NCBI GenBank assembly: GCA_048939465.1
Contig: JBHLPL010000023.1
Location: 1-20,000, forward strand
Reading direction: 5' to 3'
Source of the DNA: Promethearchaeota archaeon
GTDB lineage: Archaea; Asgardarchaeota; Odinarchaeia; Odinarchaeales; JBHLKK01
DNA length: 20,000 nucleotides
The position numbers were made by a program, and so were the translations under genes. Of the stretch, positions 2 to 10,533 are shown one piece after another; within the stretch, counting starts at the first letter, position 1; every line of letters begins with the position of its first letter. A model generated the notes under the pieces. That model did not search any database. It was not told the origin of the DNA and saw only the letters and a list, made by a program, of their open reading frames with translations.

Positions 2-1963
2 CTAATGGAATGACTCCTTTATATAATTTAGAAGGCCACCAGCTAGTAAGATGCTCTTGGACCGTGAACTGAGGTCGACTCTAGCAGAGAATTCTATTCC
101 TTTGGTACTATTCTTGACAACTAGTCTCGTTTCCCTCTTTTCTAGTGTCTTTCTAATCTTTTTCATCTCTATTTTATCGCCTTGCTCGACAGAATCATAA
201 ACCTTTTCATCTTCAAACTCTAGAGGCAGAATTCCAAAATTAACCAGATTGGCTTTGTGTATTCTGGCGAATGATTTAGCCATCACTGCTCTAACTCCTA
301 GATACATAGGAGCCAAAGCTGCGTGCTCTCTACTGGAACCCTGCCCATAATTCTCTCCCGCTACGATAAAACCGCCGCCTTTCTCCTTGGCTCGAGAAAC
401 GAAAGAGGAATCAACCTGCTCGAATACGTACTCGCTGATAGCCGGGACATTGCTTCTTAGAGGAAGTATCTTGACTCCGGCAGGCATTATGTGATCTGTT
501 GTTATATTGTCCCCTAGGCGTAATAGCACCTCAAAATGCAGCTCATCTTCAAGTGGGCCTCTTAAGGGCAGTTGCTTGATGTTTGGCCCCCTTATTATTT
601 CGATCTTCTCTGGTTCAGAAGATGGTGGAAGTATCATTCCATCATCAATTTTGATTTTGCTGGGCATTCTGATTTCGGGATAGTCTCCCAGCTTACGTGG
701 GTCCCTCAAGACTCCAAAGATGGCTGTTGCGGCTGCTGTTTCCGGGCTTACGAGGTACAGTTGAGCGTCTCTGGTACCACTACGCCCCTCAAAATTCCTG
801 TTGAATGTTCTCACAGAAATACTGCCAGAAGGCGGAGCTTGCCCCATGCCAATGCACGGACCGCACGCACTCTCCAGTATTCGGGCACCTGATGAGATCA
901 AATCTGCCAGTGCACCGTTCCTTGCTATTTCCTCAAGAACCTGGCGTGAACCGGGAGAGACAATCAGACTGAGGTTAGGATGGACTTTTTTCCCCTTTAA
1001 TATGGCAGCCACTACCATGAGATCCTTCAGGGAAGAGTTGGTACAACTTCCAATGGCCACTTGTTGGACCTCCAATCCTTCTATCTCACTAACCTTGGAT
1101 ACGTTTCCTGGACTGTGGGGCGTTGCTACCAAAGGCTCTATTTGTGCTAGATCAATCTCAATGGTTTCTTCATATTGCGCATTGTCATCAGGTTTTAATT
1201 CTTTCCATTCATCCGATCTTTCCTGCATTGCGAAGAACTTCTTTGTTGTCTCGTCTGAAGGGAATATTGAGGTCGTCGCTCCCGTCTCGGCACCCATGTT
1301 TGCGATTGTAGCCCTCTCATAGACATCCAAATCTTCGACTCCATGTCCGAAGTATTCCAAAACCTTGCCTACTCCTCCCTTTACACCAATGATCCTAAGA
1401 ACTTCCAGAATAATATCCTTTGCAGCAACCCAACGCTGTCTTTTTCCAATGAGATTGATGCCTACAACACCTGGAACCTCCAGATAAAAAGGAGCACCCC
1501 CCATTGCAGCAGCTACATCCAATCCGCCAGCACCGATAGCAAGCATTCCTACTCCGCCTGCCGTAGGTGTGTGAGAATCTGATCCCAGCAATGTTCGTCC
1601 AGGTCGAGAGAATCGCTCGAGGTTCACTTGATGACAAATACCATTTCCCGGTCTTGAGAAATAAATCCCATACTTTGCTGCAACGCTCTGAAGGTACATA
1701 TGGTCGTCTGCATTCATGAAATTCGTTTGAAGTGTATTATGATCCACGTAGCTTACTGACAATTCGGTCTTTACTCTCGGTATTCCAAGTGCCTCAAACT
1801 GAAGATATGCCATCGTCCCTGTGGCATCCTGAGTCAAAGTTCGGTCTATTCTTACAGCAATCTCGGTACCTTCTTTGAGGCCCCCTTCAACCAGATGTTC
1901 CTTCAATATTTTATGCGTTATCGTTCCTTTCATTTCAACCCCTCTTGGCTTTGGCTTCAGCAT
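2..1963 (-). CDS. Aconitate hydratase (aconitase/IPM isomerase superfamily), full length; translation more likely starts at the internal Met giving MKGTITHKILKEHLVEG (~1930)
   Basis: 653-aa ORF with ESACGPCIGMGQAPPSGSISVRTFNRNFEGRSG (Fe-S ligand region), DSHTPTAGGVGMLAIGAGGLD, IGSCTNSSLKD and a C-terminal swivel domain GENYGQGSSREHAALAP; stop codon at 2-4. Confidence 0.95.
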   Translation of the reverse strand: MLKPKPRGVEMKGTITHKILKEHLVEGGLKEGTEIAVRIDRTLTQDATGTMAYLQFEALGIPRVKTELSVSYVDHNTLQTNFMNADDHMYLQSVAAKYGIYFSRPGNGICHQVNLERFSRPGRTLLGSDSHTPTAGGVGMLAIGAGGLDVAAAMGGAPFYLEVPGVVGINLIGKRQRWVAAKDIILEVLRIIGVKGGVGKVLEYFGHGVEDLDVYERATIANMGAETGATTSIFPSDETTKKFFAMQERSDEWKELKPDDNAQYEETIEIDLAQIEPLVATPHSPGNVSKVSEIEGLEVQQVAIGSCTNSSLKDLMVVAAILKGKKVHPNLSLIVSPGSRQVLEEIARNGALADLISSGARILESACGPCIGMGQAPPSGSISVRTFNRNFEGRSGTRDAQLYLVSPETAAATAIFGVLRDPRKLGDYPEIRMPSKIKIDDGMILPPSSEPEKIEIIRGPNIKQLPLRGPLEDELHFEVLLRLGDNITTDHIMPAGVKILPLRSNVPAISEYVFEQVDSSFVSRAKEKGGGFIVAGENYGQGSSREHAALAPMYLGVRAVMAKSFARIHKANLVNFGILPLEFEDEKVYDSVEQGDKIEMKKIRKTLEKRETRLVVKNSTKGIEFSARVDLSSRSKSILLAGGLLNYIKESFH

Positions 1964-2027
1964 CCTTTCCGAAGGATCCCGACTTTGTACATATTGATTA
2001 GAAAAGGATTTGGTGGGGTCGGTGGGA

Positions 2028-2053
2028 TTTTCCCCAAGCTGATTTTCCTTGGC
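2028..2053 (-). other. T-loop intron (position 59/60) of tRNA-Trp
   Basis: Bulge-helix-bulge reading: h GTGGG/CCCAC, central helix TTCA/GGAA (3 of 4 pairs, one A.G), bulges AA|G and AA|T, h' CCAAG/CTTGG. Confidence 0.85.
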
Positions 2054-2066
2054 TTTGAACCCACAA

Positions 2067-2096
2067 TTCGTCTTAGCAGACGATCCGGCTGTTAAT
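2067..2096 (-). other. Variable-loop intron (position 46/47) of tRNA-Trp
   Basis: Central helix CGTT/GACG, bulges GG|A and AA|T, h' TTAACAG/CTGCTAA (6 of 7 pairs); removal leaves variable loop TGGTT. Confidence 0.72.
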
Positions 2097-2105
2097 CCAA
2101 CGGGT

Positions 2106-2171
2106 TTCTTCGGAGTGGACCGCTCCAGAGGCTCTTCATCCGTTTGTCAGCAGATCTATTGCCTGGGACAT
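2106..2171 (-). other. Anticodon-loop intron (position 37/38) of tRNA-Trp
   Basis: Separates CTCCAG from ACCCGT. Central helix CTCC/GAAG has one mismatch and outer bulges are AG|A and AA|A. h' is not convincingly paired, so the exact splice sites are less certain. Confidence 0.75.
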
Positions 2172-2231
2172 CTGGAGCCCGTCGTCCTACCTGATTAGAC
2201 CACGACCCCTTCAAGAACCTGTAAAATCTTG

Positions 2232-2241: not shown

Positions 2242-2345
2242 TTGTATCGGTGGGTATGAACCTAAGATCGTTTCAGCGATCTAAAAGACTGCCCTTCGCT
2301 CAGAGGATTAACATGCGGACAGAGGAAATTGTATTTTAAAAGGAT

Positions 2346-2495
2346 GTGTGACACCGTTCCGTGTTCTAATGGGTACGGGTGTTTCCTCTCGCCTATGGCC
2401 GCCAGCGAACCAGCAGCATCTTGCTTTCCCACGGGCTCGCGCACCGTAGTACAGGTAAGATCGCTCGAGAGCTTAACTTTCACGCGATGTCACAC
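2346..2495 (-). rRNA. Circularly permuted 5S rRNA gene (3' half then TTCG then 5' half)
   Basis: Minus strand reads GTGTGACATCG-CGTGAAAGTTAAGCTCTCGAGCGATCTTACCTGTACTACGGTGCGCGAGCCCGTGGGAAAGCAAGATGCTGCTGG-TTCG-CTGGCGGCCATAGGCGAGAGGAAACACCCGTACCCATTAGAACACGGAA-CGGTGTCACAC. Archaeal 5S signature blocks are present but swapped in order. Helix I GCTGCTGG/CTGGCGGC (8 bp with G.U), helix II CGAGAG/CTCTCG, helix III CCGT/ACGG and helix V ATCTT/AAGAT all pair. Confidence 0.9.
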
Positions 2496-2519
2496 AAGGA
2501 GTTTAAGAATTCTAAACAC

Positions 2520-2527
2520 TATATAAA
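2520..2527 (-). promoter_or_regulatory. TATA-box for the permuted 5S rRNA gene
   Basis: Minus-strand TTTATATA, centre ~28 nt upstream of the start of the terminal stem (2495). Confidence 0.7.
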
Positions 2528-5269: not shown

Positions 5270-6133
5270 TTGGGATGTAACTTGGGAGGATTCTACAAAG
5301 AGCTGAGGGCTAGCCTAGAATGGAGACTCCCTGAAAGGCTATTGAACCTACTTCCACGAGGTTTTCAGAGAATCGGCGATATCATTATCATGAATATCCA
5401 CAAAGAACTCCTACCATTCAAGGAGCTGATCGGACGCAGTCTATTGAGTATCATTCCAAAATGCAGAAGCGTGTGTGTTAAGATTGGAGGAATTTCAGGA
5501 AGATATCGCACTCCTGAGTTGGAGGTTGTAGCGGGAGACAAGAATACTGAAACTACACACAGAGAACACGACTGCCTTTTCAGACTAGATGTCAAAAGAA
5601 TCATGTTTGCTAAAGGTAACGTCAATGAACGAAGGAGACTGGCTGATCTGGTGAGGGACGATGAAGTGATTGTTGATATGTTCGCTGGAATTGGGTACTT
5701 CTCTATAGTGATTGCCAGACACGCAAATCCCAGAATTATCCATTCAATAGAAATAAATCCTGTTTCATACAAGTATTTGTGTGAGAATATCCTTTTGAAC
5801 AGGGTCAATGAAAAGGTGCATCCAATCCTGGGTGACTGTTCTACTGAAGCTCCGAAATTGGGGATTACTGCAGACAGAATAATCATGGGATACTTACCAA
5901 GTCCAAAAGATCATCTTCCAGCTGCGATGAAGATTACGAATCCCAATGGTACAATCATTCACTATGAAGGATTAATACATAAAACAGATCCGCCTACTCT
6001 CCTATTAGAGGAAGTAGAAGAAGCTGCCGCGAGTTACGGCAAGATGCCCGCCCTAAGTAATTGGAAATTGATTAAGACCTTTGCGCCGAATGTTCATCAC
6101 ATCGTCTTAGACGTTTTGATAAAGGAAGGATGA
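5270..6133 (+). CDS. taw2: Class I SAM-dependent transferase, Trm5/Taw2 family; Taw2-like (wybutosine pathway aminocarboxypropyltransferase) favoured
   Basis: VDMFAGIGYFSIVIARHANPRIIHSIEINPVSYKYLCENILLNRV; uses MGYLPSP at the position where Trm5 carries an NPP-type motif. Confidence 0.75.
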   Translation: MGCNLGGFYKELRASLEWRLPERLLNLLPRGFQRIGDIIIMNIHKELLPFKELIGRSLLSIIPKCRSVCVKIGGISGRYRTPELEVVAGDKNTETTHREHDCLFRLDVKRIMFAKGNVNERRRLADLVRDDEVIVDMFAGIGYFSIVIARHANPRIIHSIEINPVSYKYLCENILLNRVNEKVHPILGDCSTEAPKLGITADRIIMGYLPSPKDHLPAAMKITNPNGTIIHYEGLIHKTDPPTLLLEEVEEAAASYGKMPALSNWKLIKTFAPNVHHIVLDVLIKEG

Positions 6134-6136
6134 TCT

Positions 6137-7357
6137 TTGTTCCTGCTTTCTAAATATCCACACCTGAAAATCGACAAAATGGGAGAACTCAAGATAGGTG
6201 ACCACGCTTTTGGAAGAATAGTCTCAGATCACCAGACACCTGTTTTCGTTTTCGTTGGTGATCGAATTGGTCAGGCCTGCAAGACATTTCTGGGCGCTTT
6301 CAAGAATCATCCTCGAGTACTGGCTTGTTATTCCTATAAGACAAACTACATGCCTGATCTATGCAGAATAATCGCATCGCACGGTATGGGGGCAGAAGTT
6401 GTCTCCGACGTTGAGCTTGAGCTAGCTCTAAGATGTAATGTTTCTCCTGATCAGATAATTCTAAATGGTCCTTACAAGTCTGATAAACTCCTTAAGAAAG
6501 CTATATCTTACGGAGTCAAACTGATTAATATAGACTCATTAAATGAAATTCCGAGAATAAACAGGATCGCCGAGAAGAAAAACGTTAAACAAAACATCGG
6601 AATTACCCTTCGACAGGATGACAAGGCAAAAATCGGCGTTTCGAATTCTGAAAGGACCTTGAGTCTTATGCAAAAAACAATACCAGAAGCCAGGAACATA
6701 ATTCTATCTTGTGTACATTCCCATATGGGAACCCAAATTATCAAGGGAGAGAATTATGAGTCCAATTTTGAAATTGTATTGAGCTTCGTGGAAAGGCTGG
6801 AACAGAAGCTGGACGCCGACATAACTTCGTTAGATCTAGGGGGCGGCTTCCCCGAAATGGCAGTTATCGGAGATCAACTTGAAGGTATAGCCAAGAACAT
6901 AATACGAACAGTCTTGCGCCGAAACAAAGAATATGAATTAATCTTCGAACCTGGCCGATTTATTGTTGGTGATGCGGGTATTCTCCTCTCAAGGATTCAT
7001 TCGATAAAAGATGGTGCTGTCAGATGGGCTCTCCTTGATGCTGGAACGAATGTCCTCTCGAAGATGTCGAAGTCAAACTATCGGTTTTTGATTGCAGATA
7101 AGTTCAGGCAAAGCTACACAATCCCTACGAATATTGGAGGACCCCTCCCCACTAACATCGATGTAATCGCCAAGAACTACCCTCTTCCTGAGGCCATAGC
7201 CGAAGGAGATGTGGTTGCAGTTCTGAATTGTGGAGCCTACACTATCTCTCTGTCTTCTCAATTCTGTCAGCTTAGACCCCCCGTCCTGCTGATTGATGAT
7301 TTCGGAATTAGGGTCATAAAGAAGAAGGAGAATCTAGATGAGGACATTCTGAAATAA
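6137..7357 (+). CDS. Fold-type III (group IV) PLP-dependent decarboxylase, diaminopimelate/ornithine decarboxylase-like; TTG start
   Basis: YSYKTNYM (PLP lysine region), CVHSHMGTQI, DLGGGFPE, EPGRFIVGDAG, VLNCGAYTISLSSQF. Confidence 0.82.
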   Translation: MFLLSKYPHLKIDKMGELKIGDHAFGRIVSDHQTPVFVFVGDRIGQACKTFLGAFKNHPRVLACYSYKTNYMPDLCRIIASHGMGAEVVSDVELELALRCNVSPDQIILNGPYKSDKLLKKAISYGVKLINIDSLNEIPRINRIAEKKNVKQNIGITLRQDDKAKIGVSNSERTLSLMQKTIPEARNIILSCVHSHMGTQIIKGENYESNFEIVLSFVERLEQKLDADITSLDLGGGFPEMAVIGDQLEGIAKNIIRTVLRRNKEYELIFEPGRFIVGDAGILLSRIHSIKDGAVRWALLDAGTNVLSKMSKSNYRFLIADKFRQSYTIPTNIGGPLPTNIDVIAKNYPLPEAIAEGDVVAVLNCGAYTISLSSQFCQLRPPVLLIDDFGIRVIKKKENLDEDILK

Positions 7358-8455
7358 CTAGCGCGTGACCTTCGATTCCTTAAATACTTCCAGATACTCT
7401 GCGTGTTTGTCAAAATACTTGCGGCATGGCTCAAGCATTATGGTCAGTTCCTTACCTACTGCGTTCTTTAGGTCTAGTGGGTGTAATCCACCTTTTTTGT
7501 AGAGTTTCTCTAATTCCTCAAAAGTCCAGACCGCTAGGTCTCCGCCGTGTTTTGAAGAACGCCTTATGGTAAATTCCTTTTCGCTGCCTCTGAAAATGAC
7601 ATATTTCAGTATTTCAAGAATCGGATTATCCTCAACCTGTTTTTCAGGGCAAAAAGCCATCTTCATCTTTCTATTAATGCTGCTTGGGCTATCGTGTACG
7701 AATATGCTTGTTTCAGGAATGCTTTTGCTCATTTTTGAGGCAATCTGCTGGTCAATAGAATTATTCTCATCATACCCTCCCATTTTGGTCGGCCCTTGAA
7801 GACCCATAATTAGATGATGATGAAGACTAACGGGTTTGTACCACCTTTTCTTCCCTACCTCCCTGGCCAGTATGTTTGCTTTTCTTTGGTCGATTCCAAG
7901 CTGACAGATATCTATCTTCATATGAAATATATCGGCGACCTGCATGGCTGGATAAATATACTGGGCTGCGCTTTTTAGTTCCCCATTAAGACGTCCCATA
8001 ACTGTTAGGCAGCGAGTCATTCGTTTAACAGTGGTGTCTTTTAATACTAGTATGACTTTCTTCCAGTATTCGGTGTCCTTGACAAGATCACTGGCCCAGA
8101 TTATTTCGATTTTGGATGTATCCAGACCCAAGGATTCCCAGACTTTGATGATGTAACGCCCAACAGCTCTGATCTTCTCTAAATCTCCACCCATCTTTTC
8201 ATTTATCCACGCATGCCAGTCCGCCAGAAGTATCTTGAACTTGACTCCCGCCTCGACCAAATCACCTATTTTTTGGGCTCTCATCAAGCCTGTGGCAATA
8301 TTGGCGTATCCTGATGGTTCAAAGCCATCATATGCAACAGGACATTCATTCGTTTCAAGCAATTCCCTGAGTTCCTTAGCTGTAATTATCTCCTCAATCG
8401 GTATTCTGGTAATCAACTCAATTCGTTTCTCGAGATCCAAATGGTACCACCTCAT
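7358..8455 (-). CDS. tyrS: Tyrosyl-tRNA synthetase (archaeal/eukaryotic type)
   Basis: YDGFEPSGYANIATGLMRAQKI, LLADWHAWINEKMGG, YIYPAMQVADIF, KMSKSIP. Confidence 0.95.
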   Translation of the reverse strand: MRWYHLDLEKRIELITRIPIEEIITAKELRELLETNECPVAYDGFEPSGYANIATGLMRAQKIGDLVEAGVKFKILLADWHAWINEKMGGDLEKIRAVGRYIIKVWESLGLDTSKIEIIWASDLVKDTEYWKKVILVLKDTTVKRMTRCLTVMGRLNGELKSAAQYIYPAMQVADIFHMKIDICQLGIDQRKANILAREVGKKRWYKPVSLHHHLIMGLQGPTKMGGYDENNSIDQQIASKMSKSIPETSIFVHDSPSSINRKMKMAFCPEKQVEDNPILEILKYVIFRGSEKEFTIRRSSKHGGDLAVWTFEELEKLYKKGGLHPLDLKNAVGKELTIMLEPCRKYFDKHAEYLEVFKESKVTR

Positions 8456-8595
8456 TGATTCGTCGGCAAATACGCTTCAGCGGATATTTCATCACTGATT
8501 ATTGAAAGGAAATGCAACATCGATTTTAAATTTTGCTCCAAAGTCTTTTAACTAACGTCTAACCATCTAAGTCAGCAGATTAGTCATTTGTAACA

Positions 8596-8740
8596 TTAAA
8601 AATATCTTGGAGACTGTGCAATCTACCGCTAAAGGGCTTGGATGTAAACTTATCACCCCTCGCAGAAGGAGCTAATGACTGTGCTTGTCCGCAGTCCCCT
8701 TCCTCTCCACCATTCAGGACGAAGTTTCATCGAAGTGGTT
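8596..8740 (+). ncRNA. Candidate small structured RNA or structured 5' leader upstream of the Toprim gene
   Basis: TATA-like TTAAAAATA (8596-8604) ~25-30 nt before 8630; hairpin GACTGTG(8677-8683)-CTTGTC-CGCAGTC(8690-8696) inside GAAGG(8665-8669)/CCTTC(8698-8702); AGGG(8633-8636)/CCCT nearby. No coding potential. Confidence 0.3.
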
Positions 8741-8743
8741 TAG

Positions 8744-9169
8744 ATGAAAAAGCCTGCTAATAAAACATCAGAGATGGTTGAACGTCTCGAAGAGGTTCTG
8801 CTGGAGATTGACAATTTGTCCAAAAGTTTCCCCATCGTGGTTGAAGGCAAAAAAGATGAACAGGCATTAAGGAAATTGGGCATAAATGGCACCATTATTC
8901 GTCTTTCTGGAAGGAGGCTATTTGAGGTGGCTGATACGATGGTTAGTTTCAAAAAAGTCGTGATTCTCACAGATTTCGATAATAGAGGAGAGAGAATAGC
9001 ACATCAGCTATCAAGACACCTGGAGGAAAGAGGAATCCACCCAATTATGAACTGTCGAATTAGGATATTGAACGTCACCGAGGGAAGAATCCGACAGATT
9101 GAAGGATTAAACCGTTTTGTTCGCAATCTAAGAAGAAAAAGCCATTCTTCGAATAGTAATTCATCTTAA
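8744..9169 (+). CDS. Small Toprim-domain protein (UPF0292-like)
   Basis: PIVVEGKKDEQALRKLG, VVILTDFDNRGERIAHQLSRHLEERG. Confidence 0.85.
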   Translation: MKKPANKTSEMVERLEEVLLEIDNLSKSFPIVVEGKKDEQALRKLGINGTIIRLSGRRLFEVADTMVSFKKVVILTDFDNRGERIAHQLSRHLEERGIHPIMNCRIRILNVTEGRIRQIEGLNRFVRNLRRKSHSSNSNSS

Positions 9170-9286
9170 TTCAAGTTATAATAAGTCTTTTAAAGAAAAG
9201 TTTTTTTAAGTGGCATGAACTGATTTCTATAGCATCGAACTTACCATTTCATGCTTTGTAAGAAGTCTGAGTTGGTTACAATTAAT

Positions 9287-9294
9287 AGGAGGTA
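9287..9294 (+). promoter_or_regulatory. Shine-Dalgarno site for dnaG
   Basis: ATAGGAGGTAAATAC immediately upstream of the TTG start at 9301. Confidence 0.75.
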
Positions 9295-9300
9295 AATACT

Positions 9301-10533
9301 TTGACTGATCGAGATGATTTCGCAACAACAAAGTACATAATACATATATCAATTGATGTTGATGGTGTAGTTGAAAGGCCGGATGTTGTTGGAGCAATAT
9401 TCGGGCAGACTGAAGGCCTTCTTGGTGGAGAACTTGACCTGAGGGAACTTCAAAAGACTGGAAGAATTGGAAGAATAGGGGTAAACCTTGATACAAAAGG
9501 AGGAAAAGTCGCTGGAAACATAATCATTCCGTCGAGCCTTGATCGTGCGGAAACTGCGATACTGGCAGCCGCCATCGAGGTTATTGATCGAGTAGGTCCA
9601 TGCACAGCAAGGTTAAAACTAACTAAGATTGAGGACATTAGAGAATCTAAAAGAGAGAAGATAATTAACAGAGCAGTAGGCATCTTGAGAGAATGGAATG
9701 AAAAAGTAGCTCCGGAAAGTCAGGAGATTACAGACGCTGTTCTGAATGCCGCTCAAGTCGGAGCAATAGCCAAATACGGTCCCGAGGGGTTACCTGCAGG
9801 CCCATCAATAGACGAATCTGATTCAATAATCATCTTGGAGGGACGTGCAGATGTGCTCAACTTGCTCCGCCACGGTTTCAAGAACTTGATTGCAGTTGAG
9901 GGCACAAACATTCCGAACTCGATAATAGAATTGAGCAGAAGAAAAACAACAACTGCTTTTATGGATGGCGATCGGGGCGGTGAGCTGATACTAAAGGAAT
10001 TGCTTGAAGTGGCAGAAATTGACTATGTTTCGCGGGCCCCGCCTGAGAAGGATGTAGAAGATCTGAGCAGAAAAGAGATAATAAAGTGCTTAAGGAACAA
10101 GGTACCTGTGGAGCAATACGCTCACTTGGAGAAGCCAAAGCGAGAAAAGCCTAAGATAGAAAAGATGAAGCCAAGAAAGGAGAAGAGGTACGTTCTTGTG
10201 GAAAAACCGGAGAACGCCCGTGCCAAGGTACCTAAGACCACTGTACCGAAGGAATTCAGCAAACATGTGGGAGATGTCCGGGAGAAGCTGGAAGCAATTA
10301 TACTTGATAAGAATGCCAAAGTACTAAAAAGAACAAGTGTTGGTGAGCTTGCAGAAATCCTTTCGACGACAGACAATGCGGACGCAGTGGTTTTTGACGG
10401 CATAATTACTCAAAGACTCATTGACATCGCATTTGAAAAGGGGGTAAGGAGCCTAGTAGGTGCTCGAATAGGCAAAATCCAGAAGAAACCAGTAAAAGTA
10501 TCTGTATCCACGTTTGCGGAGATTAACGGCTAA
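9301..10533 (+). CDS. dnaG: Archaeal DnaG-type primase/exosome-associated Toprim protein; TTG start
   Basis: TKYIIHISIDVDGVVERPDVVGAIFGQTEGLLG, IIILEGRADVLNLLRHGFKNLIAVEGT, FMDGDRGGELILKELL. Confidence 0.95.
   Translation: MTDRDDFATTKYIIHISIDVDGVVERPDVVGAIFGQTEGLLGGELDLRELQKTGRIGRIGVNLDTKGGKVAGNIIIPSSLDRAETAILAAAIEVIDRVGPCTARLKLTKIEDIRESKREKIINRAVGILREWNEKVAPESQEITDAVLNAAQVGAIAKYGPEGLPAGPSIDESDSIIILEGRADVLNLLRHGFKNLIAVEGTNIPNSIIELSRRKTTTAFMDGDRGGELILKELLEVAEIDYVSRAPPEKDVEDLSRKEIIKCLRNKVPVEQYAHLEKPKREKPKIEKMKPRKEKRYVLVEKPENARAKVPKTTVPKEFSKHVGDVREKLEAIILDKNAKVLKRTSVGELAEILSTTDNADAVVFDGIITQRLIDIAFEKGVRSLVGARIGKIQKKPVKVSVSTFAEING

Follow-up and report, generated by a model that had tools for sequence, protein, structure and literature searches.

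A circularly permuted 5S rRNA gene of an Asgard archaeon with flanks that form a predicted splicing motif, and the probable circular form of its RNA

Can a 5S rRNA gene whose back half is encoded before its front half still give a complete 5S rRNA, and in what form would that RNA exist? This question is raised by a locus on the minus strand of a 20,000-nt stretch of Asgard archaeal DNA (the window; contig JBHLPL010000023.1, assembly GCA_048939465.1, Promethearchaeota archaeon). A sequence-only reading of positions 2346-2495 had proposed a circularly permuted 5S rRNA gene, in which the natural 3' and 5' ends are joined by a tetraloop and the mature RNA would have free ends in the helix III arm. 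The permuted order proposed there was confirmed by the present analysis. The interpretation was only partly supported, because the flanking sequences, which had been overlooked, form the cut-and-join signal of the tRNA-splicing enzymes. The RNA is therefore most likely restored as a closed circle, although this product is inferred from sequence, structure and covariation alone. No 5S gene of this form was found described for any archaeon in literature searches for archaeal permuted or circular 5S, which covered open-access papers and bioRxiv only.

Order of the 5S segments and their conservation

The 5S-derived sequence is confined to 2358-2405 and 2410-2478. The outer 12-18 nt on each side (2345-2357 and 2479-2496) are not 5S, which corrects the earlier interval, and represent a leader and a trailer that pair with each other. 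Read on the minus strand, the locus is composed of the following elements.

2527..2520 (-), TATA-like box TTTATATA, followed by 23 nt of spacer
2496..2485 (-), leader strand of the outer helix, UGUGUGACAUCG, pairing with 2356..2345
2484..2481 (-), CGUG, leader strand of the central 4-bp helix
2480..2478 (-), 5' bulge AAA, with the predicted cut between 2479 and 2478
2478..2410 (-), 3' part of 5S, consisting of AGUUAAGC, the helix II 3' strand, helices V and IV with loops E and D, and the helix I 3' strand, ending in GCUGCUGG
2409..2406 (-), UUCG cap joining the natural 3' end to the natural 5' end of helix I
2405..2358 (-), 5' part of 5S, beginning with CUGGCGGCCAUAGG and consisting of the helix I 5' strand, loop A (CAUA), the helix II 5' strand, helix III and loop C, ending in CACGGA
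2363..2360 (-), CACG within the 5' part, partner of CGUG in the precursor
2359..2357 (-), 3' bulge GAA, with the predicted cut between 2358 and 2357
2356..2345 (-), trailer strand of the outer helix, CGGUGUCACACA, followed by UCC
2341..2338 (-), T run (TTTT), a likely archaeal terminator

All the 5S blocks named earlier are present in the stated order (3' half, TTCG, 5' half). Helix I is capped by UUCG, and helices II, IV and V and the inner stem of helix III are intact. The Rfam 5S model (RF00001) gave no hit in the window at its gathering score of 38 bits. In permissive mode, it gave two adjacent half hits. The first, at 2406..2314 (23.2 bits), is well aligned over about the first 50 model positions, and the second, at 2499..2408 (20 bits), is well aligned over roughly the last 55 positions and lies upstream of the first. 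The same permissive search gave a weak SNORD44-like match at 2552-2610 (15 bits, E 2.5), which was rejected as chance because it lies inside a coding region.

Re-ordering had been proposed in advance as the test of permutation, and it was carried out with two covariance models built from the same 32 canonical archaeal 5S sequences, collected by a genome-wide pattern scan. Neither model contains any sequence from this family. In the natural order (model R2), the window gave two half hits of 36.8 and 25.8 bits. When each training sequence was cut at GGA|AGUUAAGC and the two pieces were swapped (model R1), the window gave a single full-length hit at 2478..2358(-) with 104.9 bits (E 3.6e-24), in which the 3' part occupies model positions 1 to about 68 and the 5' part about 75-121. 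True canonical genes behaved in the opposite way, with 126-134 bits for R2, of which they are training sequences, and 29-39 bits as halves for R1. After re-ordering, the sequence is collinear with and 81% identical (95/117) to L042, a canonical archaeal 5S.

The arrangement is not a misassembly. An independent Logan assembly (L001) is identical over the whole element, and at least five NCBI MAGs plus several Logan, JGI and ENA contigs carry the same arrangement. The neighboring aconitase is 100% identical to a protein of an NCBI MAG named Promethearchaeota archaeon, the phylum of the Asgard archaea, and 84-86% identical to proteins of MAGs named Hodarchaeota or Promethearchaeota. In the 86% clade, five NCBI assemblies and several Logan contigs show the same gene order, which is cytidylyltransferase-like gene, permuted 5S, tRNA, and aconitase. 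The permuted 5S and its flanks are conserved there, whereas the spacer downstream of them, up to the tRNA promoter, diverges strongly.

A metagenome pattern scan added three more distant versions, which are L126 (the same as L091 and L192), L145 (also found in L204-L208), and L176. The pattern was loose, and most of the at least 120 loci returned were ordinary bacterial or archaeal 5S genes with a chance GGGAA upstream, so the family is under-sampled. None of these 120 hits showed a contig containing the ligated junction. Proteins next to L145 carry the names Asgardarchaeia or Odinarchaeota archaeon, and RpoB next to L126 is 78% identical to proteins with the same names. All of these versions scored 94-108 bits with R1. 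The lowest score belongs to a variant of the L145 type in the NCBI MAG contig L206 (3667-3790 (-), GCA_054384775.1), which has two mismatches in helix II and an outer helix of only about 8 bp (94.4 bits against 102.6). It may be a real variant or low-coverage assembly noise.

In the L126 lineage, the permuted 5S (5576-5700 (-)) lies about 670 nt from a full-length archaeal 23S rRNA gene (6373-9456 (+)) on the opposite strand, and rpoB lies on the other side. No conventional 5S follows the 23S within the 160 nt left on the contig. A search for further permuted copies by synteny with rpoB found none in four related lineages. L136, a contig suspected of showing a canonical 5S in the L145 lineage, proved to be unrelated by blastn and tblastn.

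The flanks and the predicted splicing motif

A bulge-helix-bulge motif, the substrate of the archaeal tRNA-splicing endonuclease, is composed of two 3-nt bulges on opposite strands separated by a 4-bp helix (PMC3978253). The leader and trailer of the permuted 5S gene pair into this geometry. The outer helix is 12 bp in the window and is directly followed on the leader by CGUG, which pairs with CACG inside the 5S. One bulge (AAA) lies 3' of CGUG and the other (GAA) lies 3' of CACG, as in tRNA introns.

Five distinct versions were aligned, which are the window, L004, L126, L145, and L176. Overall, 95.6% of cells were paired, against 32-46% when partners were slid by 1-3 columns, and 0 of 500 shuffles reached the observed covariation score. 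In the outer helix (10-13 bp), 10 of 13 aligned pairs changed on both sides (for example A-U/G-C, G-C/A-U, and U-A/C-G) and 93.8% of cells were paired. The central helix and the bulge lengths were invariant, whereas sequence immediately outside the helix was unalignable. The 5' bulge is AAA in four lineages and AUA in L176, and the 3' bulge is GAA in all of them. Helices I, II, IV and V were 87.5-100% paired, with compensatory changes in helices II, IV and V. In helix I, the pairs next to the cap covary (3 of 9 pairs changed on both sides), with 100% of cells paired. Only five distinct sequences support this covariation, and two of them are close relatives.

The inner helix of the motif is weak. 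It consists of only two pairs (U-A and U-G) after a G-A mismatch in the window, and of three (G-C, U-A, and U-G) in L126, L145 and L176, where the strict hBHBh' form has flanking helices of at least 2 bp on both sides. The third pair results from an A-to-C change at window base 2364 (alignment column 153), where these three lineages have GACCACG and the window and canonical 5S genes have GAACACG. This change looks like an adaptation of the loop C sequence to the processing signal. The minimum-energy folds (ViennaRNA) of the L004 and L126 precursors reproduce the motif exactly. In contrast, the fold of the window's own precursor keeps the outer helix but chooses an alternative to the central 4 bp.

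In the canonical motif, each bulge is cut between its second and third nucleotides (N1N2|N3). This rule was checked on the neighboring gene at 2209..2011 (-), 150 nt downstream, which both ARAGORN and Rfam miss. ARAGORN and Rfam at its gathering score both found nothing in the window, which reflects the tRNA introns and the permutation of the 5S, not absence of genes. When three introns were removed at the predicted bulge positions, ARAGORN recovered a 77-nt tRNA-Trp(CCA). The introns lie after position 37, in the variable region, and in the T loop at 59/60, and the motifs of the T-loop and anticodon-loop introns have the same layout (outer helix, 4 nt, bulge). The first intron (66 nt) carries C/D-box-like motifs. 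The tRNA gene has its own TATA-like box and is conserved in the sister clade.

When the same rule is applied to the 5S, the predicted excised RNA runs from A2478 to A2358 (121 nt). Joining its ends gives CACGGA+AGUUAAGC without gain or loss, with the predicted junction reading ...GAACACGGA|AGUUAAGCUCUCG. This matches the CGGAAGUUAAGC consensus that is present, with minor variation, in the canonical archaeal 5S genes collected here. Folded as circles, the 121-125-nt products form the canonical 5S helices, that is, capped helix I, helices II, IV/V and III, and a short pairing across the junction. CACG overlaps the 3' strand of helix III (ACGG, 2362..2359), and the two pairings are mutually exclusive. 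Processing therefore implies a switch from the precursor fold to the 5S fold.

The center of the TATA-like box lies about 27 nt upstream of the first base of the outer helix, so transcription probably starts at about 2496-2497. The box is conserved in the sister clade while the rest of the spacer diverges, and A/T-rich boxes sit at the same distance in L126, L145 and L176. T runs follow the helix in these three lineages as well. The promoter and terminator roles are inferred.

The expected product and competing explanations

Together with these data, the locus is best explained as a functional, permuted 5S rRNA gene expressed as a short transcript of its own (about 2496 to 2338, minus strand). 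In this view, the 18-nt leader and the trailer would pair with each other and with CACG, the tRNA-splicing endonuclease (EndA) would cut in both bulges, leaving a 2',3'-cyclic phosphate and a 5'-OH, and the RNA ligase RtcB would join A2358 to A2478. The product would be a 121-nt covalently closed RNA with the sequence and fold of a complete 5S rRNA and with helix I closed by the UUCG cap, and the circle is most likely the mature form that enters the ribosome. The analysis itself establishes the permuted order, the 5S identity, the geometry of the motif with its conservation and covariation, and the exact restoration of the canonical junction, while cleavage by EndA, ligation by RtcB, use of the circle in ribosomes, and absence of another 5S gene are inferred. 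The whole chain is held with reasonable confidence.

EndA and RtcB are not encoded in the window, which encodes aconitase, a cytidylyltransferase-like protein, DUF1512, TYW2, a TyrRS/TrpRS-family synthetase, Toprim proteins, NAC, a proteasomal ATPase, aTrm56, TFIIE-alpha, an MttB homologue and others. Two adjacent ORFs at 8744-9169 (+) and 9301-10533 (+) both carry Toprim domains (141 aa and 410 aa) and may be a split or duplicated DnaG-type primase. A 175-aa tRNA-splicing endonuclease gene (PF02778 + PF01974) sits 2 kb upstream of rpoB in a related MAG named Asgardarchaeia (L212, 1283-1810 (-), GCA_054384735.1), so the enzyme is encoded in that group. In the one species-representative genome of this clade, a 24-nt 5S core pattern that hits canonical 5S genes across many archaeal phyla matched only the permuted copy, but this was a single exact-match pattern and does not exclude a conventional 5S elsewhere. 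The type Hodarchaeum MAG is reported to have a detectable 5S, so the trait does not cover everything labelled Hodarchaeota.

A further possibility, considered slightly more likely than not, is that a whole clade of Asgard archaea, whose MAGs are labelled Promethearchaeota, Hodarchaeota, Asgardarchaeia or Odinarchaeota, has no conventional 5S gene and carries a circular 5S rRNA, made by the splicing endonuclease and RtcB, in its ribosomes. This would be the first natural circular 5S, and the first permuted ribosomal RNA gene whose break is repaired by ligation.

Among the alternatives, the circle may be only an intermediate that is reopened at the helix I cap to give a conventional linear 5S. 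Permuted tRNAs of red and green algae mature in this way, by opening of the circular intermediate at the acceptor stem (PMC3978253), and archaeal circular pre-16S and pre-23S rRNAs are classically re-linearised (PMC12918454). However, tRNAs are reopened by RNase P and tRNase Z, which recognise the tRNA body, and no equivalent is known for 5S. The cap is only 3-4 nt (UUCG in the window, L004, L126 and L176, and UUU in L145) and forms a stable loop directly on a covarying helix I, which leaves no room for an end-processing signal and is the opposite of a spacer meant to be removed. In addition, the Thermoproteus SRP RNA stays circular (PMC4731332). This alternative is unlikely.

Slightly less likely still is the sequence-only reading, in which the mature 5S is a linear permuted molecule with free ends in the loop B/helix III region and the flanks are trimmed or cut but never ligated. 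The gene order alone allows it, and brown-algal mitochondrial 5S rRNAs are permuted in the final product (PMC4267664). In contrast, the flanks form a conserved and covarying splicing motif, and RNAs excised at such motifs are ligated in the known archaeal cases, including tRNA exons, pre-rRNAs and SRP RNA (PMC3978253, PMC4731332). In Thermoproteus, the unligated SRP RNA binds its proteins poorly. The inference of free ends was therefore not supported as written.

It is highly unlikely that the stem is a generic processing stem for another nuclease with a coincidental resemblance to the motif. 5S maturation in other archaea uses other, partly unidentified endonucleases (PMC10515664), and the inner helix is weak, but the 3-4-3 geometry, the invariant central helix, and cut positions that restore the canonical junction exactly are kept in five lineages while the outer helix sequence changes freely. 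A non-functional relic of a rearrangement or an assembly artefact, with a normal 5S gene doing the work elsewhere, is very improbable, although a canonical copy is not excluded without whole-genome scans, and is largely refuted by the identical or near-identical sequences in independent assemblies, the compensatory changes that maintain all helices between lineages with otherwise unalignable spacers, the conserved promoter and terminator signals, and scores of 100-108 bits against a model that never saw the sequence.

Relation to known permuted and circular RNAs

The use of a splicing-type motif to repair a permuted gene is known for tRNAs, where the circle is an intermediate, and for one SRP RNA, where the circle is the product. 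Its use for a ribosomal RNA whose gene is itself permuted is undescribed as far as the searched literature and Rfam 15 show. The closest precedent is the SRP RNA of Thermoproteus tenax and T. uzoniensis (Plagens et al. 2015, PMC4731332), a universal structured non-coding RNA whose gene has the 3' part before the 5' part, escaped annotation, and has its own TATA box and a short leader. It is circularised at such a motif, and the mature circle binds its proteins better. It differs in the RNA (about 309 nt, against 121 nt for 5S) and in the phylum (Thermoproteota against Asgard), and it is supported by RNA-seq, northern and in vitro cleavage evidence, while the present case rests on sequence, structure and covariation only.

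Circularly permuted tRNA genes of Cyanidioschyzon merolae and other algae and of Thermofilum pendens (PMC3978253) also have the 3' half upstream of the 5' half, with a bulge-helix-bulge motif formed by leader and trailer, and the splicing machinery produces a circle in which the native order is restored. Here, the linker is a 3-4-nt hairpin cap with no known opening enzyme. Archaeal 16S and 23S pre-rRNAs are released at a motif formed by their flanks and circularised by the tRNA-splicing enzymes, and some circles stay in the ribosome, as reported for circular 23S rRNA (PMC12918454; for the permuted 23S of Pyrococcus, PMC7758197). Those genes are collinear, so circularisation joins the natural ends, whereas here the gene itself is permuted and circularisation would repair an internal break. 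A 2026 survey of archaeal rRNA circularisation explicitly excludes 5S from such processing (PMC12918454).

The only permuted 5S paper found concerns the mitochondria of brown algae (Valach et al. 2014, PMC4267664; Rfam mtPerm-5S). In that organellar RNA, helix I is likewise closed into a hairpin, but the ends sit at the three-way junction between domains alpha and gamma, no splicing motif or ligation is involved, and the final product is itself permuted. The break in the present gene lies between helix III and loop B, not at loop A, and Rfam reported no mtPerm-5S match. In E. coli, an engineered permuted 5S whose native ends are joined by a tetraloop supports active ribosomes, and the native ends point away from 23S rRNA (Huang et al. 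2020, PMC7283268). That construct is artificial and not a free circle, with the new ends in loop C or D fused into 23S rRNA.

5S rRNA is regarded as the one archaeal rRNA that does not pass through the splicing-type circularisation pathway. This locus predicts an exception in which the pathway is obligatory, because without ligation the molecule is broken inside. It would add a second universal ribonucleoprotein RNA that exists as a circle, after the SRP RNA of Thermoproteus, in the lineage closest to eukaryotes. It also gives a natural test of whether free 5S ends matter for ribosome assembly, a question so far addressed only by engineering in E. coli. Rfam-based annotation misses this gene, and genomes of the clade will therefore be scored as lacking 5S, which affects the high-quality MAG status that requires 5S, 16S and 23S. 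A permuted covariance model finds the gene at about 100 bits.

A plausible but speculative origin is a tandem duplication of an intron-bearing 5S gene followed by loss of the outer halves, as the present motif is exactly what an intron at GGA|AGUU would have. In the metagenomic contig L127 (about 1929-2007 (-)), a 5S-like gene carries an insertion of about 20 nt inside loop C/helix III (CCCAUuccgaaaguugccgcgaaccggaaacacggaag), which could be an expansion or an intron.
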